A stretch of DNA of 40,142 nucleotides, taken from UHGV virus genome UHGV-0061378; one strand, 5' to 3'. The notes under the pieces are model-generated. The model had not been told where the DNA came from and ran no database searches. It saw nothing but the letters and a program-made list of their open reading frames with translations. How positions within the stretch are numbered: the stretch's first letter is position 1; each line of letters opens with the position of its first letter. Positions 1 through 40,142 of the stretch are shown one piece after another. The position numbers and the translations under genes were made by a program. Source of the stretch: a virus.

Positions 1-49
1 TGACGGGTAAAAAGTGGATAAAATAATTTTACCCACCGGATTTTTACCC

Positions 50-1207
50 ATGCTCACCGTTAAGCAGATTGAAGCAGCAAAGCCGAAAGAAAAACCATAC
101 CGCCTTCTCGATGGTAATGGCCTGTACCTTTATGTCCCTGTATCAGGGAAAAAGGTATGGCAGCTTCGCTACAAGATTGACGGTAAGGAGAAAATCCTGA
201 CTGTCGGAAAATATCCGCTTATGACTTTGCAGGAAGCAAGGGATAAGGCATGGACTGCGAGGAAAGACATCTCGGTTGGCATCGATCCGGTAAAAGCGAA
301 AAAGGCTTCGTCTAACAACAATTCCTTTAGTGCGATTTACAAGGAATGGTACGAACACAAGAAGCAAGTCTGGTCAGTAGGGTATGCGACTGAACTTGCA
401 AAAATGTTTGATGACGACATTTTACCCATCATCGGCGGTCTTGAGATTCAGGATATTGAGCCGATGCAACTGCTGGAAGTAATCCGCAGATTTGAAGATC
501 GCGGTGCAATGGAGCGAGCCAACAAAGCCCGCAGAAGATGCGGCGAGGTTTTCCGTTACGCTATTGTCACTGGTAGGGCTAAATATAACCCGGCACCTGA
601 CCTTGCTGACGCCATGAAAGGATATCGCAAGAAGAACTTCCCGTTTTTACCTGCCGACCAGATCCCGGCATTCAACAAAGCACTGGCAACATTTTCAGGA
701 AGTATCGTATCGCTCATTGCGACCAAAGTTTTACGCTACACAGCCCTAAGAACGAAAGAGCTTCGCTCCATGCAATGGAAGAACGTCGATTTTGAAAACA
801 GGATTATCACTATCGACGCCAGTGTGATGAAGGGACGCAAGATTCATGTTGTCCCGATGTCGGACCAGGTGGTTGAACTTCTCACTACGCTAAGCTCCAT
901 CACTAAACCAGTATCAGAGTTTGTTTTTGCCGGGCGCAACGATAAGAAGAAGCCAATCTGCGAGAACGCGGTATTGCTTGTGATCAAACAAATCGGCTAT
1001 GAGGGTCTGGAAAGCGGTCACGGATTCAGGCATGAATTCAGCACAATTATGAACGAGCACGAATGGCCTGCTGACGCTATTGAAGTGCAACTGGCACATG
1101 CCAACGGCGGATCTGTGCGTGGAATTTACAACCATGCTCAGTATCTCGATAAGCGCAGAGAAATGATGCAGTGGTGGGCGGACTGGCTTGATGAAAAGGT
1201 TGAGTGA
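50..1207 (+). CDS. int: Tyrosine integrase, P4-like family
   Basis: Track ORF 14..1207 starts at GTG; first ATG at 50 gives N-terminus MLTVKQIEAAKPKEKPYRLLDGNGLYLYV, the typical P4-family integrase start. Sits beside the attP core and arm-type repeats. Confidence 0.85.
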   Translation: MLTVKQIEAAKPKEKPYRLLDGNGLYLYVPVSGKKVWQLRYKIDGKEKILTVGKYPLMTLQEARDKAWTARKDISVGIDPVKAKKASSNNNSFSAIYKEWYEHKKQVWSVGYATELAKMFDDDILPIIGGLEIQDIEPMQLLEVIRRFEDRGAMERANKARRRCGEVFRYAIVTGRAKYNPAPDLADAMKGYRKKNFPFLPADQIPAFNKALATFSGSIVSLIATKVLRYTALRTKELRSMQWKNVDFENRIITIDASVMKGRKIHVVPMSDQVVELLTTLSSITKPVSEFVFAGRNDKKKPICENAVLLVIKQIGYEGLESGHGFRHEFSTIMNEHEWPADAIEVQLAHANGGSVRGIYNHAQYLDKRREMMQWWADWLDEKVE

Positions 1208-1288: not shown

Positions 1289-3235
1289 TTAAAGAATAAT
1301 TCTTTCAACCTTCCAAGTTGCAGATCTACTTCCTGAAATTCCAACTCCATTTGAATCTTTGAGAAGAATTCTAAATGATGTTTCTGTTACCAAATCATAC
1401 GTTACATTTATTGCTGCGCCATCTCCTATCGATATTGAGATAAAATCAGGCACAACTCCAAGTCCGTGAGTTATTATTTGTCCATTTGAATAAACCCCAG
1501 TTCCTATTTTAGTCGTTGCATACCCGGCATTGTTTGCAAGGACAACATTAACCGAATTTGCTCCTAATTTAGCAATCTTCCTATCAGATGAAATCTCTGT
1601 AGATTGTATTGCATTATTTGAAATAACTGCATCTTTTATAGCCCTGAAATCTCCAGGTGTTCCTGATACAGCATTAACAAGTATTGCATACTGCATACTT
1701 CTATCACTTCTTTTATTGCCGAAAGCATTACCGCAAATTGTTGTCCCGGTAAATCCAGATGCTCCCGTGTTATCAAGAAGAATTCCGCACCTATATGTAT
1801 TTGATGTATCAGAAGGCAAACCTATACCTCTTATGGAATTATTGGATACTATATTATTATCTGGCTTGACATTTGCATTATTGCAGTAAATGCGAATTCC
1901 AACATCACAAAATGCATCTAATACATTATCAGATATAACATTACCCGCTCCCCACACATCAATACCCATAAACGAATCAGCACCATCTCCAAAAAATTTA
2001 TTTTGAGTAACTATTGTTCCGCTACCCCTAATCAATATAGCAGGCCTTGGAATGCTTGAAGTCTTTTTGCTATCATTGTAGCCATGATTATCGTTTATAT
2101 GAGATTCCCCCCCCGCACTATCTATGCAGCAATTACACGAATCTATTATATTTTTATTTATCCTTACATAGACAGAATCGTGTTTTATACCTGTAATAAA
2201 ATTTGATATGGAATTTGATACAAAACTAGTTGCCTTACATGGCAATGAAACGCCATGTATAGCGTCCTTAGACGCTCCTATGGCAACAAAATGTATCCCT
2301 GTAACAATTGCTGGGTTCTCATTAGATGATGTGTCACCTATGGTAATAGCAAAAGAATTCTCATCTTCAGGACCATCAATTGTTAATATCGTTTGTGGCG
2401 TATATCCTTGAGATATTTGCGATCCATTTCCTGAACCAAACCCTCTCATACTTACAAAAGATGGGATTCTTAGTTTTTCTGTTACTCTACAGTTGCCCCC
2501 CCAAAAAAATTCCTCTTTAACATGGGCAGCGGCCAGCATGATTGGAATTGTATCATCTTTAACTCCATCAAGCGTCGCTCCATAATTTCTAAGGTCATTG
2601 GTTTCATACCCATTTAAATAACCAATACATCTCCATCCTGTTGAGGTATATCTGGCAAATTTATCATCTGGGGGAACAGTAAAAGGAGGAACTGTCATTT
2701 CTCCTCCAGTTATTTCATTTTCATATACCCAAAACAACCCATCATAATCTTTGATTGCGCATCGGTTGTCACGAATGATATTTTGCTTGTCATAGTTCCC
2801 ACAATATGAAAAACCAGTTGCTAATTTCTGTAGATTTGTTCCTGATGCTGAGTTTATTAATGATGCGCCATTTTCGCTAGTTAATACATTATTTAGAGGG
2901 TCAGGATCATACTTCAGCACATTAGGAAAATAGAACTGCTGCGCACCGTACGCATCATAAACAGCCATAGAATGGCCTTGCACGGTTACGAATTTGGCAA
3001 TCTGTCCGTTATATACCGGATATCCGGCAGCGTTAATGATTATTGGTTGCGAAACAGGAACGTGAGAACCGTCTTCGTTCTCCACATAAACCTGAATCTG
3101 GTTTTCAGGATTTACAGGGTCAGTGTCAATTTTACCGATATAAATTTTGCCATTGGCAACCGCTTTAAAAGAACGCGCCATAGTGAAAAGTTGCGAAGGC
3201 ATCGATACGATCACATTGGCTGTAATGTCTGTCAT
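1289..3235 (-). CDS. Tailspike protein: P22 gp9-type head-binding N-domain fused to a divergent receptor-binding domain
   Basis: 648 aa. First ~110 aa ([46 protein letters not shown]...) match the remembered P22 tailspike N-terminus; the remainder is not P22-like and looks AT-rich by eye. Confidence 0.9.
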
Positions 3236-27050: not shown

Positions 27051-28427
27051 TCATACGTCAGCCCCTTGTGCATATCGTCTGCCACGTGCAGCGGGTGCAT
27101 TTGATGCTGTGCAAATCTGTCTGGCTTCATCCTGGTCACATGCAACAAAGTGTCCGTTGCAGAACCGCTGGTAAACCGTACCAAGTGAGCCAAAACGGTT
27201 TTTCGTCACAATGATTTCAGCAAATGGTGCGGCGCTACTGTTCTCGTCATATACCGCTTCCCGATAGAGCATGATGATTGAGTCTGCGTCCTGTTCAATG
27301 CTTCCTGAATCACGCAAATCTGCGTTTGTCGGGCGTTTGTTTGGTCGCTTCTCAACATCGCGCGAAAGCTGACTCAGGGAGATAACAGGCGTTTTCAGGT
27401 CTTTCGCCATCGCCTTCAGGCTTCCGGAGATGTGAGCAATTGCGAGGTCGTTGCGGTCTGCTTTCGGCTTCTCAATCAGGCCAAGATAATCCGCCATGAT
27501 GAGTGAGAGGTTTGGATTTTCCTGTTTGTGCCGTTCTGCGATTGAGCGTATTTCTTCGACCGATAACCGCGAGGCATCGACTACCCATACATCCAAATCT
27601 GCAAGCTGACTCATGCCGTTAGCAACACGCGCCCAGCCTTCGTCATCCATCGATGCAGGATTTCGCAGCACGCTAACCGACATCCTCCCGGCGTTGGCGA
27701 TGCTTCGCTCTGCAATCTGCAATGCGCTCATTTCCATCGAGAAAATCAACACTCCGCGCCGAACGTCAGAACCAGGGATAACGCGGCTTGCAACGCCTTC
27801 GGCAATCTTCAGCGCCAGCTCGGTTTTCCCCATACCAGGACGAGCGGCGATAATCACCAGGTCTTCCGCGTTCATCCCCCCGGTGATAGCGTCAAGTTCT
27901 TCGATTCCGGTCTTCAGGGTATCGGACTCTTCTCCGTTCCTCAGACGCCTGTCAAGCGTGTCAGTGTAGTCAGTAATGATTTCCCCTAACCGTACAGGTT
28001 TAACCTCGTCACGGGGCTTTCTGATGGCTGAAAGACGCTTTACAAGCTCATCCATCGCCTGACTCGATGCGTCGATGGTTCCGCTCTGAATTGGTTCACG
28101 CATTTCATCCATGATTTCCAGCACCAGACGGCGGTGATAGTTATCCGCGACCATTCCGGCATATCCCTTCAGGTTTGCGGCACTCGGGCAGTTTTTGCTG
28201 GTCATCAGGATTGACGTGAAATGCTCCTCTCCGCACGCCTCGGCAACCATCAGCGCGTCGATTAGGTTTCTGTTTCGCGCCTGCTTGCGGATAACCTCGA
28301 AGGCTTTCCGGTAGAGCGGAATTGAAAACGCTTCCGGCTCCAGCGTTGCCAGAACGTCACTGGCGGTTGGTGTTAATCCACCAATCAGCAGGCCACCGAT
28401 AACGCTCGCTTCGATATCCTGTCTCAT
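27051..28427 (-). CDS. Replicative DNA helicase, DnaB-like
   Basis: 458 aa with Walker A ([15 protein letters not shown]), ...IIMLYRE... and the usual DnaB-family layout; start coupled to the O-like stop (ATGA). Confidence 0.88.
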
Positions 28428-29371
28428 GCAATCCCCCTGTCTGCAAACTTCCCTTCCCGAACTCCCGTTAACGAGTCTTCTCTCAGCAGGTAATCAAAAT
28501 CAGCCGTCCAGCCCGTGTCGTTGTCTCCGAAGTAAAACGGCTTGGCCTGATGCACAAACGCCCTGACATACGCTCTGAAACCGTCCACGTTTGGCGTTTT
28601 CAGTTGCGGGATGATTTTCTTCAGGCGGCGTTTGCGTTTCTCGTTGACTGCAACAGCATGTGGAAGTCTGTCACCGACTTCGGTGTTGTAGGCGTTCAGG
28701 AAGGATTCGTAGTCGATTCGTTCTGCCTTGCGACGTTCAGGTTTAACCTGCCCATCGCCTCCCCCATTGGGGGGTAGGGGGGTATTATTTATATTCTTGT
28801 TAATACCTTCTTGTTCATGATGTGCGGTTGTTTGTGCGGCTTCATGTGCGCTTTCATGTGCGGCATGTGCGCTGAAAGCCGCGCCATTACTGGCTTTGTC
28901 ATGTGCGGCATCATGTGCGGTTGTTTGTGCGGCTTCATGTGCGGGTAAATTGTCCATTTTTTGAGCATACTCATGGTAATTTGTGATGGTGATCACACGA
29001 CCTTTTTGCTTCTCTCCATCAATGGAGATCATCCCCTCTTTCACAAAAACCTGAAGCATCCGCTCAACCTGATCACGGCTTGCTGGCTTGCCATGTCTGT
29101 CGCATAACTGAAGACCTAAATCAGCTGCTGTCACAACCAGTTGACCGGGTTGCAGATGCCATTCATGACCTTTGAAATTCGCTTTGTATGGCTTTCTGGC
29201 GGCATTCAGGAGAAGGTTTTCCCACAGGGTGCGAAGATAAACATCTTTCGCCCATGACTGTTTCAGAATGCTCCGGTACAACGGAATGTAACCAGTTTTC
29301 TGGTTCTCCATCCTGTTGCTCCTGCGCTCGTGTGCGGCGCTGAAATCGTAGATTTTTGCTGTATTGCTCAT
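28424..29371 (-). CDS. Replication initiation protein, O-like, containing ori iterons
   Basis: 315 aa; N-terminus [10 protein letters not shown]... resembles lambda O (MTNTAKILNF...); His/Ala-rich internal repeats are encoded by the iteron array. Confidence 0.8.
28780..28945. repeat. Origin of replication: iteron array (TCATGTGCGG-type units, two ~32-bp copies) with adjacent AT-rich tract
   Basis: Direct repeats catgtgcgg/tttgtgcgg read many times at 28815..28945, with an AT-rich stretch at 28780..28815, all inside the O-like gene. Confidence 0.8.
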
Positions 29372-30371: not shown

Positions 30372-31088
30372 ATGGAAAATAAAAAATCACTGACGACAGA
30401 ACAGCTCGAAGACGCTAAGCGGCTTAAGGCTTTGTATGAGTCAAAAAAGAAAGAATTGGGAATAACCCAATACTCAATCGCTGATGAACTGGGTATCACC
30501 CAAGGAGCGGTAGGGCATTATCTTAATGGCAGAAACGCGCTAAACGTTGAGGTTGCATCTGGTTTTGCACGATTGTTGCAAGTCTCAATTGCTGATTTTA
30601 GCCAGTCAATTGCTGCCAAGGTTGCAGAACAGGCAGAAAGCCTTAAGAGCGATGCCAACGTAAGGTATGCAGGGGAATACAGAGCAGGAAAGAGGTATCC
30701 GGTGTTAAGCAGTATCCAGGCTGGCTCGTGGTGTGAAGCATGCGAACCATACACCATTAAAGACATAGATGTTTGGCTTGAGTCTGACGCGCATATTCAA
30801 GGTAATGCGTTTTGGCTTAAAGTGGAAGGTGATTCAATGACGGCACCGGTTGGGTTAAGCATTCCAGAGGGAACATTCGTTCTTTTCGATACCGGAAGGG
30901 AGGCGATCAACGGCAGCTTGGTCATAGCAAAACTTTCTGACTCTAACGAAGCAACATTCAAGAAGCTGATAATCGACGGCGGAAATAAATACCTCAAGGG
31001 ACTTAATCCTGCATGGCCTCTCGTGCCAATCAATGGAAACTGCAAGATTATAGGCGTTGCAATTGAGACAAAACTAAGGCTGGTTTGA
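30372..31088 (+). CDS. cI: CI repressor (HTH plus LexA-like S24 peptidase domain)
   Basis: 238 aa; N-terminal HTH (…ELGITQYSIADELGITQGAVGHYLNG…) and C-terminal S24 region (…EGDSM…KL…); divergent from cro. Confidence 0.9.
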   Translation: MENKKSLTTEQLEDAKRLKALYESKKKELGITQYSIADELGITQGAVGHYLNGRNALNVEVASGFARLLQVSIADFSQSIAAKVAEQAESLKSDANVRYAGEYRAGKRYPVLSSIQAGSWCEACEPYTIKDIDVWLESDAHIQGNAFWLKVEGDSMTAPVGLSIPEGTFVLFDTGREAINGSLVIAKLSDSNEATFKKLIIDGGNKYLKGLNPAWPLVPINGNCKIIGVAIETKLRLV

Positions 31089-32049: not shown

Positions 32050-32349
32050 ATGACAGTAGTCATTACATATCTGGCTGACGATAACGCCAGAAATCGCCGC
32101 AGAGCACGCAGACAGGCTCAACGTGAGCAGGCAATGCAAGAGCAGCGACTGGCGCGAAAAATTGCGCTAAAGCTCTCTGGTTGCGTCAGAGCAGACAAAG
32201 CAGCATCACTCGGAAGCCTTCGCTGCAAGAAGGCAGAAGAAGTCGAGCGTAAACAGAACCGTATTTACTACCGCAAGCCACGCAGTGAAATTGGTGTGAC
32301 TTGTGTTGGTCGCCAGAAAATGAAATTAGGCAGCAAACCACTTATTTGA
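32050..32349 (+). CDS. N: Antiterminator N-like protein
   Basis: 99 aa from ATG 32050 (GGAGG SD) with arginine-rich motif DNARNRRRARRQAQREQA near the N-terminus; first gene after pL/nutL. Confidence 0.75.
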   Translation: MTVVITYLADDNARNRRRARRQAQREQAMQEQRLARKIALKLSGCVRADKAASLGSLRCKKAEEVERKQNRIYYRKPRSEIGVTCVGRQKMKLGSKPLI

Positions 32350-32360
32350 GAGGAATTAAT

Positions 32361-32984
32361 ATGTCATCAATCCGCTTAACTACGAGAATGAAAGAGAAAA
32401 TCGCTCGTAACGCTTTAATTAAGTCTGGGGTTTTCACTGAACTTGAAGAAGTAATAAAGTTAAAGAACCAGCTTGCACTTGACGCCAGAGTTATTGCGTT
32501 TGGCGGTAAAAAGAAAACTGAGGAAGTGGATCAGTTATCATCCAAGTTAGTAGCTATAAGTGAAGAACTTGAAAAGATGGGATGTTCATTTTACTCATAC
32601 GATGTTCGTTCTACTTCGATTTATCTGACTGTATCTGGAAGAAGGGTTGGCTGGCATTCATACGGAAAAGACGGCAACGGTGAAGATATATTGCTCCCCA
32701 CCCCAGAAAAAGATAAATGCATGTTTGACGCAGAACACGAAATAACAAAAAGGTTTGATGAAATCTGCGCATTGCAACAAAAACTTGAAGCCAAGAAAAA
32801 GGATATCGAATCAAATGTATTGGCTGCTTTGAACTCAGTCACAACAGTTAAGCGACTTATTGAAGTTTGGCCTGAAAGCAAAGAATTGCTACCAAAAGAA
32901 GCAGATAAAGCAAGTACAGCACTTCCTGCTTTACGGGTAGAAGATTTGAATAAGATGATTGGACTTCCTCCCGAGGCCGCATAG
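32361..32984 (+). CDS. Hypothetical protein (ral/sieB/gene-17 position)
   Basis: 207 aa from ATG 32361 with GAGAGG SD, immediately after N; no recognisable motif. Confidence 0.6.
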   Translation: MSSIRLTTRMKEKIARNALIKSGVFTELEEVIKLKNQLALDARVIAFGGKKKTEEVDQLSSKLVAISEELEKMGCSFYSYDVRSTSIYLTVSGRRVGWHSYGKDGNGEDILLPTPEKDKCMFDAEHEITKRFDEICALQQKLEAKKKDIESNVLAALNSVTTVKRLIEVWPESKELLPKEADKASTALPALRVEDLNKMIGLPPEAA

Positions 32985-34197: not shown

Positions 34198-34364
34198 GTT
34201 TTACGGATAACTGGTCAGACGAAGAATTCATTCGTCAGATAAAAGAATTAATCGGCAACGAAGGAGATATTCATGTCACTTGCAACCACAGTGAAGGAGA
34301 GCAAGTTACAGAGACGCATGTACACGCAGCAGGCGTTAATGTATCGCCAGAAGGGGGATCGTGA
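34194..34364 (+). CDS. Small hypothetical protein (kil position)
   Basis: 56 aa; ATG overlaps the previous stop (ATGA). Confidence 0.4.
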   Translation: MSFTDNWSDEEFIRQIKELIGNEGDIHVTCNHSEGEQVTETHVHAAGVNVSPEGGS

Positions 34365-34453
34365 AGGTGTTCGCGTATTTTTAAATGCGGCAAAGACTGA
34401 AGTATTAAATCAGCGTTATTTCCTTGGGCCATGTCCATTCTGAGAACAAACAT

Positions 34454-35059
34454 ATGAGCAAAGAATTTTACGCAAGACTGGCAGCTATTCAGGAGAATCT
34501 GAACGCGCCAAAAAATCAGTACAACTCATTCGGTAAATATAAATACAGAAGCTGCGAAGATATTCTTGAGGGTGTTAAGCCGTTACTGAATGGCCTGTTT
34601 TTATCAATCAGCGATGAAGTTGTGTTGATTGGTGATCGGTATTACGTGAAAGCAACGGCAACTATTACTGATGGCGAAAACAGTCATAAAGCAACCGCTC
34701 TTGCACGAGAGGAAGAAAGCAAGAAAGGAATGGATTCTGCACAAGTTACGGGAGCTACAAGCTCTTATGCACGCAAGTATTGCCTCAATGGTTTATTCGG
34801 CATTGATGATGCGAAAGATGCAGATACAGACGAGCATAAACATCAGCAGAACGCAGCAGCAAAGCAATCAAAACCATCACCTACATCTGAACAGGTTCTA
34901 AAAGCATTCACTGACGCAGCAATGCAGAAAAACACCTTAGAAGAGCTTAAACAGGCGTTCGCCAAAGCGTGGAAGATGCTCGAAGGCACACCGGAGCAGC
35001 ACAAAGCGCAGGACGTTTACAACATCAGACGAGACGAATTAGAAGGAGCGGCTGCTTAA
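34454..35059 (+). CDS. erf: Erf single-strand annealing protein
   Basis: 201 aa MSKEFYARLAAIQENLNAPKNQYNSFGKYKYRSCEDILEGVKPLL..., closely matching remembered P22 Erf. Confidence 0.9.
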   Translation: MSKEFYARLAAIQENLNAPKNQYNSFGKYKYRSCEDILEGVKPLLNGLFLSISDEVVLIGDRYYVKATATITDGENSHKATALAREEESKKGMDSAQVTGATSSYARKYCLNGLFGIDDAKDADTDEHKHQQNAAAKQSKPSPTSEQVLKAFTDAAMQKNTLEELKQAFAKAWKMLEGTPEQHKAQDVYNIRRDELEGAAA

Positions 35060-35442
35060 TGGCACATTCGATTACTGTAAGACTAAACAAGCCCGCAAGA
35101 GAGTTTCAGGCCGGGGAAAATATCGGATTCAACATCCGTGCTGGCGTTCAGTATTACGATCGCCAGACAAAAAAGAAAGAATGGACAAACTACAGCGCCG
35201 TTGTATTTGCCAAGCCGGGAGCGCAAGCGGATTACTACCGTAGTGTTCTTGTTGAAGGTGGCATTGTGGAAATTACCGGAGAAAACATCAGGGTTGATGT
35301 TTATCAGGGGCAAAATGGTCAATCAATCACTCTTGAATTACTGAATGCAAAGATTGGATTTGCAGCTTCAGGAAATGGCCCGCAGCAGCAAAGCAGTAAC
35401 CAGCAGAACACTCCTGTATACGACGATTCCATCCCATTCTGA
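35059..35442 (+). CDS. SSB-like protein with host-SSB-type C-terminal tail (DDSIPF)
   Basis: 127 aa; ATG overlaps the erf stop (TAATG); Gly/Gln-rich linker followed by an acidic tip ...PVYDDSIPF like the E. coli SSB tail. Confidence 0.7.
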   Translation: MAHSITVRLNKPAREFQAGENIGFNIRAGVQYYDRQTKKKEWTNYSAVVFAKPGAQADYYRSVLVEGGIVEITGENIRVDVYQGQNGQSITLELLNAKIGFAASGNGPQQQSSNQQNTPVYDDSIPF

Positions 35443-35465
35443 TTTAGAAAAATAAGGATTCCATT

Positions 35466-35762
35466 ATGCCAGCGCCTCTGTATGGTGCGGATGACGCGCG
35501 CCGCTGTTCCGGCAATTCCGTATCGGAGGTGCTGGATAAATTCAGAAAAAACTACGACCTGATAATGTCGCTACCGCAGGAAACGAAAGAGGAAAAGGAA
35601 TTTCGCCACTGTATATGGCTTGCAGAGAAAGAAGAACGAGAGCGAATTTACCAGACATCAATCAGACCATTCCGCAAAGCCACATATACCCACTTCCCTG
35701 AATATATCGACCCGCGCCTGCGTAATTACCGCTCACGCTATGGCGCTATCAGTAATGACTGA
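35466..35762 (+). CDS. Abc2-like anti-RecBCD protein
   Basis: 98 aa [57 protein letters not shown]..., matching my recollection of P22 Abc2; sits after erf as in P22. Confidence 0.65.
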
Positions 35763-35772
35763 GGAATTTACC

Positions 35773-35937
35773 ATGAGAGGACTTGCATACAATCCCGGCA
35801 TTCTTCCGGCAGAAATGATTATTCGCCAACGCGTAAAGCCAATGCCATCGAGAGAGGAATTACTTAAGCGAGAGAGTTTCGGTTCTGTTAATGACAACAA
35901 ATATCTGAATGCGATGTTGCGGAGTGGGAAGAAATGA
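35773..35937 (+). CDS. Small hypothetical protein
   Basis: 54 aa from ATG 35773 (GAGGA SD); stop overlaps the next start. Confidence 0.4.
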
Positions 35938-36404
35938 AACAAATGTCACTAATTGAGATGGATGGTTTTCTGAAAGGTAAATGCATTCCAAGTGATTTAA
36001 AGGTTAACGAAACAAACGCTGAATATCTGGTGCGTAAGTTCGGTGAGCTTGAATCAAAACTGGAAACGGCGTTGCGGGAGTGTCGTTCTGCTGGAATCAC
36101 GATTGATAACCTTGAGGCCAAGTGCACGGCGCTGGCAGCGGAGAGTGCGGGGCTGAAAAAGTTCTGTGAAGACGCAGCGTTTGATGCTGATTATGAGTCA
36201 GAACTTCTTGGAGAACGCGGTGGATTTGTTGATGGGCTTAGCTTGGTAAAAACCCCAGCCACCGACACTTTCCTGGATGAAGTGCGGGCGCAGGGGGTGG
36301 AGATGTTCTCAGAAAAATTCGGAGGTGGCACTCCGCTTTCCAATATGGTCAAAGAGGTTGCGGCTGATTTTGCCGCGAAACTTCGCAAAGGAGGCAACCA
36401 GTGA
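35934..36404 (+). CDS. Hypothetical protein
   Basis: 156-aa ORF, coupled on both sides. Confidence 0.55.
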
Positions 36405-37009
36405 GCGAGATTAACTATCAGGCACTGCGTGAGGCGGCACAGAACGCGAAAAATTTAGGTGGGATTAAGAATTACAAGCGAGGCGAGCAAGCTGTTGCCG
36501 AATTTAAGTCCTTGATAACGCCACATATTGTGCTGGCGCTTCTGGAAGAACGGGAAAGAAACCTGCAATACATCAAACGCCGTGACCAGGAGAACGAGGA
36601 TATTGCGCTAACGGTAGGGAAGCTGCGAGTTGAGCTTGAGGAGACAAAATCAAAACTCAACGAGCAGCGAGAGTATTACGAAGGTGTTATCGCGGATGGA
36701 AGTAAACGCATAGCAGAACTGGAAAAACAATGCGCCGAATGGGAGCGAAAAGCATTAAGTAACTTTGAAGAGTGTGCTGCGATGGCTGAACGTATCGAAG
36801 AGATGAGTAAACAAAGTTGCGAAGCTCGGGAGCGTGATTTGTTTGAATCATGGGTAATGCATTCAATTTGTATTTCCAAATCGACACTTGAAGGATTGCG
36901 CACCGAAACCGGATACCGTAACGCAACCTTATCAGGCACAGACTTCAACCGAATGTGGGAACAATGGAAATCTATCCGCGCCGCTGGCATTCGCATCAAA
37001 GGAGAGTGA
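36401..37009 (+). CDS. Ead/Ea22-like coiled-coil protein
   Basis: 202 aa, GTG start after AAAGGAGG; N-terminus [21 protein letters not shown]... typical of lambdoid Ea22-like proteins. Confidence 0.65.
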   Translation: MSEINYQALREAAQNAKNLGGIKNYKRGEQAVAEFKSLITPHIVLALLEERERNLQYIKRRDQENEDIALTVGKLRVELEETKSKLNEQREYYEGVIADGSKRIAELEKQCAEWERKALSNFEECAAMAERIEEMSKQSCEARERDLFESWVMHSICISKSTLEGLRTETGYRNATLSGTDFNRMWEQWKSIRAAGIRIKGE

Positions 37010-37010
37010 T

Positions 37011-37199
37011 ATGAACGGACAAATATCAATTATTCGCCCTGGAACTACTGACGAAGAAATAAGGGTGATTATCCGCCTTGCGATGGGTAGAACAATAACT
37101 GCTCTCATTACTCCTGAAAATCTCGCATTAGCATTAACCGGAAAGTCAGACCTGCCAGTAGAGCTAAAGCTGCGAAATGTTGAGATTAAGGTGAAATAG
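37011..37199 (+). CDS. Small hypothetical protein
   Basis: 62 aa from ATG 37011 with AAAGGAGAG SD. Confidence 0.5.
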   Translation: MNGQISIIRPGTTDEEIRVIIRLAMGRTITALITPENLALALTGKSDLPVELKLRNVEIKVK

Positions 37200-37201
37200 T
37201 T

Positions 37202-37621
37202 ATGAATACTCTTACCAAAGAACGCCTGCTGAAAATCAAGCAGTGGCGCGATACATACGGACCGGGTAGCAACGTTGTGCTTCCAGCTGAAGAAGCGGAA
37301 GAACTGGCAAGGATTGCACTGGCATCGCTGGAAGCAGAGCCTATTGGTGAAGTTTCAGAGAAGCGATACGGCCTTATTATGGATGGAATGGTAGACCTTG
37401 GCGGGAAATCAACTTATCGCATCATTAAGGGAGAAAAAGCGATGAAGTTGTTGCCGCTGGGGACGAAGTTTTATACCGCACCGCCAGTGCCTGTAGTGCC
37501 GAAAGAAAAACCAATGCCTAACCCTTTTAGCATGTACGCGGTTGATGCTGTTGCCGCTATTGCAGAGGTGAGAGGCTGGAACGCCTGCCGCGCCGCCATG
37601 CTTCAGGGTAAAGGAGAGTGA
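37202..37621 (+). CDS. Hypothetical protein (C-terminal RAAMLQG motif)
   Basis: 139-aa ORF; its 3' end carries one copy of a 23-bp direct repeat. Confidence 0.55.
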   Translation: MNTLTKERLLKIKQWRDTYGPGSNVVLPAEEAEELARIALASLEAEPIGEVSEKRYGLIMDGMVDLGGKSTYRIIKGEKAMKLLPLGTKFYTAPPVPVVPKEKPMPNPFSMYAVDAVAAIAEVRGWNACRAAMLQGKGE

Positions 37622-37622
37622 T

Positions 37623-38216
37623 ATGACCACTATTACCAATAAAAAACAGTATCCCAGCGAGCAATATCTTAATGAGCTGATCACCAACATGGAGTTTGCT
37701 GCAAGGGCACCAGTTGAAGTCGTGAGAGCGATGGCAGCAGAGCTACAGAAGCGGCGCGAAGCTGATAGCGCAGAACCAGTTGCTTATATTTTCAAACATC
37801 CGGCCGGAAAATTATTCTGGGCTTTAACGGATGAAAGCAATAAAAATCAATCGGACGTTATTTCTGTTTATGCTGCCCCACCTGCACCGATATCGTCGGA
37901 GGCCATTGAAAACGCAATTGAATACATCCGCAGTATCGCTTTTCACATCGATGAAAACGATTATCACGGCAAACATATTGCGTATTTCATGCGACAAGCA
38001 TTGGCCTGGCTGGAAGGTCATTCATGCCGCGATGACAGCCAGGGCAAATCCGATAATTCACCATTGCCGCGCTACCAGGTTATCGAATTAACAATGCTGG
38101 TTAAACAATTGGTCAGCCAACTGAAAAAAGCAAAACCTGATTGCAAATTACCAGATAGGGCGATGGATTATCTTTTGCGGAACGGACTGGTAAGTGTGGA
38201 GGGTGTTTTACGATGA
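37623..38216 (+). CDS. Hypothetical protein
   Basis: 197-aa ORF, tightly packed between neighbours. Confidence 0.55.
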   Translation: MTTITNKKQYPSEQYLNELITNMEFAARAPVEVVRAMAAELQKRREADSAEPVAYIFKHPAGKLFWALTDESNKNQSDVISVYAAPPAPISSEAIENAIEYIRSIAFHIDENDYHGKHIAYFMRQALAWLEGHSCRDDSQGKSDNSPLPRYQVIELTMLVKQLVSQLKKAKPDCKLPDRAMDYLLRNGLVSVEGVLR

Positions 38217-38854
38217 CCATTTCTACCAAAAAGCCTCTTTATGCTGAGGTTAACAATGTTCCTGATGATTATGAGTTCACTGACGAGGAACTAAACAGAA
38301 TTATTGCAGGTGATATGTTCACTCCTCGTCAGGACGCAATAATGGCACGGGAGATACAGAAACTCCGCGCCGCCATGCTTCAGGGTAGCCAACCTGTAAG
38401 CCAAACTTACAACTTGCCAGAATTAATCGAAGGCATGGAAGTTTCCATTGATGTAAGCACTTGTGATGCTGATTTAGGTAATCGCTATTTCGGTACCGTC
38501 ACCGAGGCGTCAGAACTTGATACAGCCAAGAATGGTTACATCCTCCTGGTTCAGGACGCAGAGCCAAACTTCGATATAAATGACAACTCTCCGGTAACTC
38601 CGGATGGTTGGGTTATAGTGCCGAAGAAACTAACCGCTGAGAACGGCGCTAAGGGTGTGCTATCCGGTGAATTTTCAGAAACGACGTTTATAAGCTGCCC
38701 GGAATGTTTTGGCGATGATGATTGCGATACCTGTGACGGTAGCGGGCGGATTGAAATTAAAGTACCAGTCACGTGGACGACCATAAAATCCATCTGGGAT
38801 AAAGGTATTGCGTATTTTGCAGCAGAACCGAGGCAGGAGGTTAACCGTGGCTAA
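38213..38854 (+). CDS. Hypothetical protein with C-terminal Cys cluster (internal RAAMLQG motif)
   Basis: 213-aa ORF; contains the second copy of the 23-bp repeat and a CPECFGDDDCDTCDGSG motif. Confidence 0.55.
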   Translation: MTISTKKPLYAEVNNVPDDYEFTDEELNRIIAGDMFTPRQDAIMAREIQKLRAAMLQGSQPVSQTYNLPELIEGMEVSIDVSTCDADLGNRYFGTVTEASELDTAKNGYILLVQDAEPNFDINDNSPVTPDGWVIVPKKLTAENGAKGVLSGEFSETTFISCPECFGDDDCDTCDGSGRIEIKVPVTWTTIKSIWDKGIAYFAAEPRQEVNRG

Positions 38855-39131
38855 CCTGCAACTTGCAGTCAAAGGTGAATACTTCGATGCCATGATTCGC
38901 GGAGAGAAAACGGAAGAGTATCGCCTGTGTAATGACTACTGGAATAAGCGAATTATGTTCCGGGAATATGACCGCCTGATTATCACAAAGGGATATCCGA
39001 AGCGTGACGATTCCAGCCGCAGAATTGACGTTCCGTATGGCGGCTATGAAATCAAGACAATCACACATCCGCACTTCGGCGATAAACCGGTAAAGGTGTT
39101 CGCGATAAAGGTGAATATCGGCAATGAATAA
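38847..39131 (+). CDS. ASCH-domain-like protein
   Basis: 94 aa from GTG 38847 (GGAGG SD): ANLQLAVKGEYFDAMIRGEKTEEYR... fits the ASCH GxKxxExR pattern. Confidence 0.5.
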   Translation: MANLQLAVKGEYFDAMIRGEKTEEYRLCNDYWNKRIMFREYDRLIITKGYPKRDDSSRRIDVPYGGYEIKTITHPHFGDKPVKVFAIKVNIGNE

Positions 39132-39203
39132 CAATCCTCGCACTCGCGGGGATTTCTTTTATCTGAACTCGCTACGGCGAGTTTTGTTTAATGGAGACAA
39201 GAA

Positions 39204-39548
39204 ATGTCAGATTTGGCTATGAAAGTTTTGAAATGGCAATCGACTGGCGATGTTGGCATCAGTAGCGCAACTCTTGCCTCAATCGCATGTGGACTGAAAA
39301 ATAATATCTATGGTCATAGCTTCAGTGCTCCACATGACGCAGCTGATTTCCGGCGATGCGTTGCACTTGTTGAGCAGATTCCAGAAATCAGAGATTCATT
39401 CGACAAGGTTGCAAAGCGCGTTCCGGCATTCAAAGGCATCCTCAACGAATGGGATTCCCTCGTTGCTCTGTTGAAGTCTGAAATGAAGATACACGGAAAC
39501 AAAGCACCAGAGACTTACAGAAGAATCAGCGATCTACGCAAGGACTAA
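39204..39548 (+). CDS. Hypothetical protein
   Basis: 114-aa ORF followed by tandem terminators. Confidence 0.55.
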   Translation: MSDLAMKVLKWQSTGDVGISSATLASIACGLKNNIYGHSFSAPHDAADFRRCVALVEQIPEIRDSFDKVAKRVPAFKGILNEWDSLVALLKSEMKIHGNKAPETYRRISDLRKD

Positions 39549-39551
39549 CCC

Positions 39552-39580
39552 GCCTCACACTCGATGAGGCATTTTCATTT
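39552..39580 (+). terminator. Rho-independent terminator
   Basis: GCCTCA-CACTCGA-TGAGGC followed by ATTTTCATTT. Confidence 0.6.
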
Positions 39581-39605
39581 ATCAAGATATCCAGACCTAC
39601 CATCG

Positions 39606-39628
39606 CCGCATCAATGCGGTTTTTTATT
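39606..39628 (+). terminator. Rho-independent terminator (second of a tandem pair)
   Basis: CCGCA-TCAA-TGCGG followed by TTTTTTATT. Confidence 0.7.
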
Positions 39629-39637
39629 GCCTGATTT

Positions 39638-39653
39638 GCAGGTTCGATTCCCT
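39638..39653 (+). other. tRNA-Arg T-arm-like fragment (TTGCAGGTTCGATTCC)
   Basis: 16-nt match to the T-arm of tRNA-Arg(CCU)/argW as remembered; diverges afterwards and has no acceptor end, so not a functional tRNA. Confidence 0.5.
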
Positions 39654-39670
39654 ATTCGGAGATAGCACTC

Positions 39671-39871
39671 ATGCAACACGAACTACAACCTGATTCACTG
39701 GTTGATTTGAAATTCATCATGGCCGATACTGGCTTTGGTAAAACCTTCATCTATGACCGGATTAAGTCCGGCGACCTGCCAAAAGCCAAAGTTATCCACG
39801 GGCGAGCAAGATGGTTATATCGTGACCATTGTGAATTCAAAAATAAGCTCTTAAGCCGCGCCAATGGGTAA
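39671..39871 (+). CDS. AlpA/Xis-like DNA-binding protein (excisionase/regulator)
   Basis: 66 aa; last gene before the att region, upstream of int on the circular map; resembles AlpA-family proteins. Confidence 0.7.
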   Translation: MQHELQPDSLVDLKFIMADTGFGKTFIYDRIKSGDLPKAKVIHGRARWLYRDHCEFKNKLLSRANG

Positions 39872-39944
39872 AATAGCGGGTAAAATATTTTTCACATCTA
39901 AAAAACACCATTCCAATCAATCCCCTGCCGCGCCAAGTAGATGT

Positions 39945-39959
39945 CTGCAGGGGACACCA
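39945..39959 (+). other. attP core: identity with the 3' end of tRNA-Arg (CTGCAGGGGACACCA)
   Basis: 15-nt match to the argW acceptor 3' end including CCA, as remembered; between alpA/xis and int; flanked by GGGTAAAAA-type arm repeats in both orientations. Confidence 0.65.
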
Positions 39960-40142
39960 TTATTGTGTTTATCCCTAAAACCACGTAAAAACCGTAAATT
40001 ATTAAATTCGCACTAGCAGTGCCGAATAAGGCACACCAGGAACTCGTGGTCTTATTCATTATGAAGTGGTTTTTACCTGTTCTCTTAACCAAGTAATAAA
40101 TGCCTCAATTTTTGGCCACTGCCTGCCCGGTAATGTGGTGAT

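Follow-up and report, generated by a model that had tools for sequence, protein, structure and literature searches.

A short coding repeat at a mosaic joint between shuffled modules of early-left genes in a P22-like Escherichia coli prophage

The virus genome UHGV-0061378, analyzed over its whole length of 40,142 bp (hereafter, the window), is a complete P22-like Escherichia coli prophage in which a 23-bp sequence, CCGCGCCGCCATGCTTCAGGGTA, is present exactly twice on the plus strand, at 37588-37610 and 38365-38387 (777 bp from start to start). Both copies are translated in frame to RAAMLQG, one at the end of an open reading frame (ORF) of 139 amino acids (ORF139) and the other inside an ORF of 213 amino acids (ORF213), with a paralogous modular gene, ORF197, between them. 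The repeat marks a mosaic joint within the early-left 'ea' region, which holds Ea22/EaA/DUF551-type genes: homology to other phages starts and stops on it, and the modules on its two sides are found in many different combinations. Recombination at this short homology, at a motif marking a protein domain boundary and mediated by the phage Erf protein or host RecA, is the best explanation and a probable one.

Repeat, homology breakpoints and copy number

No further match to CCGCGCCGCCATGCTTCAGGGTA was found in the window, even with up to 3 mismatches, and none was obtained in 100 dinucleotide-preserving shuffles; the sequence is the longest exact dispersed direct repeat of the whole window. Identity between the two copies ends at 23 bp, and their flanks are unrelated (GWNAC and IQKL upstream, KGE-stop and SQPVSQ downstream, for copies 1 and 2, respectively). 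A third, partial copy (CCGCGCCGC...AAAGGAGAGTGATATGA) is located at the end of an Ea22-like ORF (approximately 36976-37014). An earlier note on this DNA, made by reading its letters, had described a perfect 23-bp direct repeat encoding RAAMLQG in two different proteins, and the coordinates, exactness and reading frame were all confirmed. The repeat had also been said to bracket the 197-aa gene; ORF197 does lie between the copies, and the interval (37611-38364) additionally contains the end of ORF139 (its last 3 codons and stop codon) and the start of ORF213 (51 codons).

When the region was compared with 50,697 phage records by megablast, patchy matches only were obtained. In pairwise BLAST comparisons, homology to the window started exactly at 38365 in loci L002, L003, L004, L006 and L007, and the phages with this start were 1720a-02, PAS61, K-15KW01, TB06053 and IMG/VR locus L007; in 1720a-02 ('EaA') and PAS61 ('Ea22') the start lies within one gene that has a different N-terminus. 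Homology of the left piece stopped at 37609/37610 in L004 and L007, so that homology both starts and ends at the short conserved sequence, as at a mosaic boundary. Among the endpoints of high-scoring segment pairs, pooled over all fetched loci, 14 were in 38364-38375 and 13 in 38604-38615, the latter at the motif NSPVTPDGW.

In H19J, orf588 matches the N-terminal module of ORF213 as far as the repeat, beyond which it has a different, DUF551 C-terminus. Similar joints were found elsewhere in the same genes. In H19J, orf688 consists of the start of ORF139 (37202-37491) fused to the end of ORF197 (37867-38216) with a 22-nt overlap, the switch point being a second shared motif, FYTAPPVP/VYAAPPAP (hereafter, YxAPPxP). 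The 28 nt encoding the NSPVTPDGW joint are matched at 100% in H19J in another context, and the family consensus has GNSPxxPDGW at this place. A further joint, ALASLE-AEPVSQTYNLP, uses AEPV microhomology. The 17-mer AAAGGAGAGTGATATGA, which abuts repeat copy 1, is also present exactly at 36998-37014, after the Ea22-like ORF, and KGE-stop or KGD-stop endings followed by varied downstream genes were seen in many loci; this gene boundary looks like an intergenic mosaic joint.

Recombination in silico between the two copies removed 777 bp (ORF197 and the N-module of ORF213) and produced an in-frame 291-aa ORF139-ORF213 fusion. The 876-bp in-silico fusion was used as the query for the deleted form in a BLAST search of 5426 complete E. 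coli genomes (RefSeq). In strain TB06053 the junction was crossed in one piece (query 275-827, 92.6%), one hit (H86) spanning the joint unbroken, and many other hits began at query 387-413, which corresponds to the repeat. In L004 (TB06053), window positions 37476-37609 and 38365-38821 map to 2501-2634 and 2613-3069 with a 22-nt overlap; in L007 the two pieces overlap by 23 nt on a single repeat copy, and L296 has the same single-copy architecture. Natural full-length fusion proteins were also found (P0049, 278 aa; P0010, 272 aa). The two-copy arrangement was not found in the complete E. coli genomes of the RefSeq set. The exact ORF213 protein (P0001) is encoded on four public contigs (L247-L250), each with the complete 139-197-213 block and its two repeats at the 777-bp spacing. 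Identity to window 34213-40142 is 100% in L247; in L248 (99.6%) the block is located behind a RecT/Gp157 recombination module instead of Erf/Abc2, and L249 (99.9%) carries an integrase fragment and gtrABC downstream.

Module combinations and codon identity at the joint

IMG/VR was scanned with the codon-degenerate pattern CGNGCNGCNATGYTNCARGG, which gave 120 loci, and 114 family loci after a few chance hits had been dropped. By their flanks, the 114 loci fell into 57 clusters on the left and 67 on the right, with 98 left-right combinations represented, and one left module was joined to 13 different right modules. The right modules included AEPVSQPYTLP... followed by DUF551, ADGNSPVIPDGW..., AEQPQN..NIPENIP..., AENAES..., AEQTNYRAIVERI..., and KGE-stop with a new gene after it. 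In 9 of the 120 loci there were two relaxed copies, directly oriented and separated by 163-1080 bp.

With the window's own modules, all four combinations of the four-gamete test were found at both the RAAMLQG and the YxAPPxP joints. At the RAAMLQG joint, the C-terminal module of ORF139 (139C, the other modules being designated likewise) was followed by KGE-stop and 197N in 12 loci, by NLPELIEG in L004, L007 and L296, and by KSQHTQ in 5 loci, and 213N was followed by NLPELIEG in the window and L247-L250 and by KSQHTQ in H19J. At the YxAPPxP joint, 139N+139C and 197N+197C occur in the window, 139N+197C in H19J, and 197N+139C in L043, L278, L281 and L335; H19J and the L043-type loci are reciprocal recombinants. 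Unrelated flanking modules and their reciprocal combinations, both expected of a mosaic boundary, were thus observed.

The C-module of ORF213 had 5697 homologues, most of which covered only the part after the joint; these proteins are 174-332 aa long and have differing N-termini, some of them of the Ea22 type (PF13935). The 103 distinct motif-bearing proteins included DUF551 (30 proteins, the commonest C-module), dATP/dGTP pyrophosphohydrolase (5), Lar restriction-alleviation (4), Ead_Ea22 (2) and zinc ribbon (1) domains, the remaining proteins having no Pfam domain, and 9 of the 103 were 'split' forms ending at most 6 residues from the motif. A 41-nt consensus island matched 407 phage records with hosts in Escherichia, Klebsiella, Salmonella, Enterobacter, Shigella and Citrobacter, annotated as Ea22, EaA, DUF551 or hypothetical.

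An identical 20-mer, CGCGCCGCCATGCTTCAGGG, was carried by 81 of the 120 IMG/VR hits. As controls, hits of the codon-degenerate pattern in unrelated, GC-rich bacterial genomes, which are chance matches, were used (121 among the matches listed); the rare Leu codon CTT was present in 105/120 viral loci versus 14/121 control hits, and the canonical 20-mer in 1 of the 121 control matches listed. The probability that two hits are identical was 0.46 for the viral loci, 0.0039 for the controls and 0.0044 under independent codon choice, the last value being based on approximate E. coli codon usage from general knowledge; identity at the joint thus goes beyond protein constraint. The 20-mer was shared in 51% of the locus pairs that are unrelated on both sides, and the information content was concentrated in an island between about -8 and +27 and fell almost to zero in the flanks. 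Because identical codons recur across unrelated modules, the core is shared by recent common descent, which implies recombination.

A second sample, not conditioned on the core, was anchored on the left module VDAVAAIAEV (codon-degenerate) and contained 117 loci, 81 of them distinct. The canonical 20-mer was present in 12/117 loci, and both synonymous variants (CGT GCC GCT and others) and amino-acid variants (RAAMLH, RAAMLK, RAAMLA and RAAMLQS) were common. The first and second codon positions of RAAML were invariant, and third-position diversity (pi3) at the R, A, A and L codons was 0.45, 0.36, 0.48 and 0.30, respectively, with neighbouring codons at approximately 0.27-0.55; from +19 on, diversity at all positions rose to approximately 0.7 (random). 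Since pi3 in the core is like that of its neighbours, the DNA string carries no constraint beyond coding. The core is the last protein-constrained codons of the module, and homology ends right after RAAML. A first reading, in which the DNA string itself was specially conserved (84/124 identical), was tempered by the drift in this sample.

Each of the two readings offered by the earlier note was partly right. The repeat does mark a shared protein motif: in a large modular family, RAAML(QG) closes the N-terminal module, and all three ORFs matched phrog_60 (ORF139, 5.2e-24; ORF197, 1.9e-18; ORF213, 2.9e-26), a large PHROG of modular phage proteins of unknown function. Synonymous divergence in relatives, which the note had named as the sign of conservation at the protein level only, was seen as ordinary drift in the left-anchored sample, whereas most motif-bearing loci of the first sample had identical codons.

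Short-homology recombination and competing explanations

In the proposed mechanism, the two 23-mers would represent one widely distributed allele, occurring twice, of the short coding segment (C)RAAMLQG, which closes the N-terminal module of hyper-mosaic early-left accessory proteins found in P22-like and lambdoid prophages (under the names EaA, Ea22-like, DUF551-containing or 'DnaJ'). Purifying selection on the boundary peptide would maintain an island of near identity of approximately 20-35 bp between otherwise unrelated sequences, and the Erf/Abc2 system or host RecA would occasionally cross over in this island, swapping left and right neighbours with co-resident phages or prophages, or between two tandem copies. 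The expected outcome is many combinations of N-module and C-module, including 'split' forms (joint, KGE-stop, ribosome-binding site, new gene). As the joint is in frame at a module boundary, recombinants would be viable and would accumulate, and the canonical allele would be over-represented because it is copied into each new combination. The joint would be present twice in this prophage because two family members stand in tandem, and a crossover between the copies would delete 777 bp, giving the 291-aa fusion as in relatives.

From the literature we infer that Erf or RecA catalyzes the crossovers at the joint; the direction of events, and exchange that is ongoing rather than only historical, are likewise proposed. 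Short or diverged homology is used far more efficiently by Rad52-like phage recombinases, Erf among them, than by RecA, and these enzymes have been put forward as drivers of lambdoid mosaicism (PMC3945230). For recombination that depends on Red or RecA, approximately 30 bp is the quoted minimal length of homology (PMC2327257), and the same paper credits Clark et al. 2001 with exchange via 'flanking, short and conserved sequences'.

Conservation at the protein level only, with RAAMLQG as a required peptide in two paralogues and its nucleotide identity incidental and without a role in DNA exchange, is improbable. The invariant first and second codon positions, third positions that drift like their neighbours within one module lineage, the scarcity of the canonical 20-mer and the amino-acid variants in the left-anchored sample, and the stable inheritance of the two-copy block are all consistent with it; however, independent codon choice predicts approximately 0.4% identical pairs where 46-51% were observed, including pairs unrelated on both flanks, and the rare CTT codon is near-fixed. 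The homology breakpoints lie on the repeat with single-nucleotide precision, each of the four module combinations occurs, and vertical descent cannot give unrelated modules common synonymous sites. A dedicated DNA site, that is, the target of a site-specific recombinase, a homing endonuclease or another factor promoting cassette exchange in a shufflon- or integron-like manner, is very unlikely, although the island is sharply conserved between highly variable flanks and the same string is present in phages of several genera with a very high diversity of attached cassettes. Synonymous constraint, dyad symmetry and a linked recombinase, which would mark a shufflon- or attC-like site, were all absent: pi3 in the core (0.30-0.48) is within the range of adjacent codons of the same module, the island has no inverted repeat, dyad or shared fold, and no candidate recombinase was consistently linked and no dedicated one was adjacent. 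Moreover, the other, unrelated joints in the same genes (YxAPPxP, AEPV, NSPVxPDGW and KGE-stop-ATG) fit generic homology-driven exchange. The idea of a dedicated site was rejected on the ordinary synonymous drift of the left-anchored sample.

Slightly less likely still is an RNA-level element in the early-left transcript, such as a regulatory structure, a small RNA target or an internal start at the ATG embedded in the core. This ATG is in frame, a coding sequence annotated by PGAP in K-15KW01 starts 15 nt upstream of the repeat, and copy 2 folds slightly better than shuffled sequences (z = -2.05). Against this, no Shine-Dalgarno sequence precedes the embedded ATG, synonymous drift is normal, and the copies fold differently, each pairing with its own non-homologous flanks (copy 1, z = -0.7). 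No family of Rfam 15 matched by its covariance model at the gathering score, the only hits being two of chance level elsewhere, at 39.1 kb, and the element was rejected as the Rfam, ARAGORN (no tRNA) and folding checks were all negative. A recent local duplication, with the copies as the ends of a tandem duplication within this phage, has the lowest probability of all. The direct orientation, shared frame and 777-bp spacing of the repeats would fit it, but each copy with its own flank occurs separately in other phages, and the explanation was rejected because of the unrelated flanks and the lack of extended similarity around the 23 bp.

Several points weigh against short-homology recombination as the explanation. 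An exact length of 23 bp puts the repeat at, or slightly under, the quoted minimum of approximately 30 bp for efficient exchange, which should therefore be infrequent per generation. Natural single-copy forms share 90-97% identity with the window and are therefore relatives, not recent deletion products; no near-identical (at least 99%) spanning fusion was found in the 5426 complete E. coli genomes, a weak test since this set also lacks the window's two-copy form. The two-copy block is stable, being intact at 99.6-100% in at least three phage backgrounds. Breakpoints at domain boundaries could come partly from selection, if crossovers occur anywhere and only whole-domain chimeras survive. The part of Erf in these exchanges is that of a candidate catalyst, proposed from the literature. 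Finally, the AlphaFold2 model of the natural fusion P0049, made from a 42-sequence alignment, was unusable (mean predicted local distance difference test score, 35.8), and a reading of the motif as a helix end plus linker is only suggestive.

The earlier note had proposed that the repeat could drive deletion or duplication of the intervening gene and that related genomes be compared for the presence or absence of 37611-38364. Both single-copy and two-copy forms were found. The exact in-frame deleted form, with breakpoints on the repeat, was present in L004, L007, L296, P0049 and P0010, which agrees with the proposal; there was no sign that the pair in this phage actively deletes, and no evidence that the repeat destabilizes this particular prophage. 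The single-copy and two-copy data are compatible with either insertion or deletion.

Prophage context, known systems and implications

The features of the locus and of the recombination module are listed in Table 1. The virion genes of the window are approximately 95% identical to those of Escherichia phages Louie and IME10, and Bro/Ant-like genes, replication O and DnaB genes, and the gp17 superinfection exclusion gene are also present. The Erf and Abc2 genes are located 2.5-3 kb upstream of the repeat, and small ORFs downstream of ORF213 are followed by an AlpA/Xis-like gene at 39671-39871. From its position between erf, abc2 and the Ea22-like ORF on one side and the AlpA/Xis-like gene on the other, the repeat was assigned to the early-left 'ea' accessory region.

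Table 1. Positions of the joints, the genes around them and other prophage genes in the window
Feature	Position	Strand	Remarks
Integrase	14-1207		
P22-type tailspike	1289-3235		
CI-like repressor	30372-31088		
erf, phage single-strand-annealing recombinase	34424-35059	+	PF04404 ERF, E = 1.2e-44
abc2, P22-type anti-RecBCD protein, in phage recombination module	35466-35762	+	PF11043, E = 4e-62
Ea22-like 202-aa ORF	36401-37009		PF13935, E = 4e-25
ORF139, 139 aa	37202-37621	+	139N, YxAPPxP joint, 139C, RAAMLQG, KGE-stop; ends ...GWNACRAAMLQGKGE, stop
Joint J1, copy a	37470-37491	+	FYTAPPVP codons in ORF139
Joint J2, repeat copy 1	37588-37610	+	(C)RAAMLQG codons, C-terminal end of ORF139, directly followed by KGE-stop
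Gene-boundary joint AAAGGAGAGTGATATGA, 17-mer	37610-37626	+	KGE, TGA stop, Shine-Dalgarno, ATG; abuts repeat copy 1
ORF197, 197 aa, paralogous modular gene	37623-38216	+	197N, VYAAPPAP joint, 197C
Joint J1, copy b	37867-37888	+	VYAAPPAP codons in ORF197
ORF213, 213 aa	38213-38854	+	51-aa N-module, RAAMLQG joint, SQPVSQTYNLP linker, conserved C-module; contains ...IQKLRAAMLQGSQPVSQTYNLP...
Joint J2, repeat copy 2	38365-38387	+	(L)RAAMLQG codons inside ORF213, between 51-aa N-module and C-module
Joint J3	38584-38611	+	NSPVTPDGW codons; homology to relatives ends here

ORF139 consists of N-terminal modules only and is a 'split' form of an EaA/DUF551-type protein. Besides phrog_60, ORF139 matched phrog_5117 and phrog_660, and ORF197 matched phrog_6847 and phrog_660. 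Unlike the Ea22/EaA/DUF551 families, ORF139, ORF197 and ORF213 gave zero matches in Pfam and NCBIfam; at the gathering score PF13935 (Ead/Ea22-like) matched none of the three, its only match in the window being the 202-aa ORF, and PF04448 (DUF551) matched none of the window's ORFs. The C-module of ORF213 contains the motif CPECFGDDDCDTCDGSGRIE (residues approximately 160-180), a CxxC...CxxCxGxG pattern of the DnaJ-type zinc finger, and is almost invariant over 40 homologues; homologues of this module are labelled 'molecular chaperone DnaJ' by PGAP, with no match in Pfam or NCBIfam.

Other observations were made in the window. An ORF of 103 aa at 36888-37199 has PHROG matches limited to residues 42-103 and is called as 62 aa in L247, and it is probably a 62-aa gene starting at the ATG at 37011. 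An Nmad5 (nucleotide-modification-associated domain 5) protein (E = 1.2e-70) is encoded in the early-left region at 32301-32984 and may have a DNA-modification or anti-restriction function. A probable phage origin is an iteron-like array of approximately 12-nt units (CATGTGCGG core; 5 overlapping 35-nt copies), located at 28816-28943 within a replication-O-like gene (28424-29371, minus strand). A tRNA T-arm-like string, TTGCAGGTTCGATTCCC, is located at 39614-39652 after a T-rich terminator-like sequence, between a 114-aa ORF and the AlpA/Xis-like gene; no tRNA was detected there by ARAGORN, and the string may be an att or tRNA remnant. The integrase gene (14-1207) and the AlpA/Xis-like gene (39671-40142 side) are at opposite ends of the prophage, and in L247 the latter is directly followed by host LysR and GntP genes, which places attP between xis and int in the circular form; by this placement, the window takes in the entire prophage and, in addition, a few hundred bp of host sequence.

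Short conserved sequences acting as mosaic joints are a known kind of element (Clark et al. 2001, cited in PMC2327257; Martinsohn 2008, PMC2327257; De Paepe 2014, PMC3945230). As with the lambdoid boundary 'linker' sequences of HK620 (Clark et al. 2001, cited in PMC2327257), exchange breakpoints coincide here with a short island of near identity, and as in the relaxed recombination attributed to Rad52-like phage recombinases (PMC2327257; PMC3945230), the phage is a temperate enterobacterial one encoding a single-strand-annealing protein, here Erf; the length of homology is also close to the quoted minimum. Unlike lambdoid linkers between genes, the joint described here is intragenic, at a protein domain boundary, and is one of a chain of at least 4 intragenic joints in one gene family. 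Ea22 variants have been described as mosaics with a common N-terminal part and unrelated C-terminal domains including DUF551 (PMC10834534). The Ea22/EaA/DUF551 mosaics of the lambda exo-xis and P22 ea regions in that paper belong to the same region and bear the same annotation names as the genes studied here; the paper covers mosaicism of protein blocks in a few variants, whereas the nucleotide joint, codon identity and combinatorics are given only here. In a full-text literature search, no paper was found for the peptide 'AAMLQG' (motif RAAMLQG, CGCGCCGCCATGCTTCAGGG). Neither this particular intragenic joint nor the family's chain of joints appears to have been described.

Domain swapping at conserved motifs also takes place at the junction of the head-binding and receptor-binding domains in P22-family tailspikes and reportedly in the T-even tail fibre protein gp37, whose 'His boxes' Tetart et al. 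are said to have described in 1998. In those systems, too, short intragenic motifs between variable domains serve as crossover points and give in-frame chimeras; they vary late host-range determinants, whereas the proteins concerned here are early accessory proteins of unknown function. Polymorphic toxins carry a conserved pre-toxin motif (e.g., VENN in CdiA) with downstream cassettes, and such toxin systems are treated by Zhang et al. 2012 (PMC3482391). The likeness lies in a constant N-terminal part, a short conserved peptide at which a C-terminal domain of very high variability begins, and motif-sharing tandem copies downstream from which recombination could replace the C-terminus. Unlike in polymorphic toxins, the genes here lack both a toxin/immunity pair and a secretion signal, the downstream copy (ORF213) is not an orphan cassette but a full gene that has a start of its own, and the left side is as variable as the right.

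A speculative and doubtful extension is that the ea-region genes in tandem constitute a 'polymorphic effector' system of the phage, with the chain of joints (ALASLEAEPV, YxAPPxP, RAAMLQG and NSPVxPDGW) retained for in-frame cassette exchange. If this were true, exchange between tandem paralogues and incoming phages would allow fast re-pairing of adaptor N-modules with variable C-terminal effectors, and the joint would be an analogue of the VENN-type pre-toxin motif, used in phage-host or phage-phage conflict. Some of the C-domains are of an anti-restriction type (Lar, dATP/dGTP pyrophosphohydrolase and DUF551).

No new mechanism is revealed by the joint, which represents an ordinary, already-known route to phage mosaicism. 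It provides a nucleotide-resolution example of the rebuilding of a temperate-phage accessory gene, in which a selected boundary peptide would supply enough DNA identity for in-frame swaps. Because two tandem joints are 777 bp apart and an event between them would be easily scored by polymerase chain reaction, the locus is a possible natural test bed for homologous versus illegitimate recombination in phage mosaicism. Module swapping also accounts for the inconsistent annotation of these genes as EaA, Ea22, DUF551, DnaJ or hypothetical, and the pool of variable C-terminal domains, some of them anti-restriction-like, may merit functional study.

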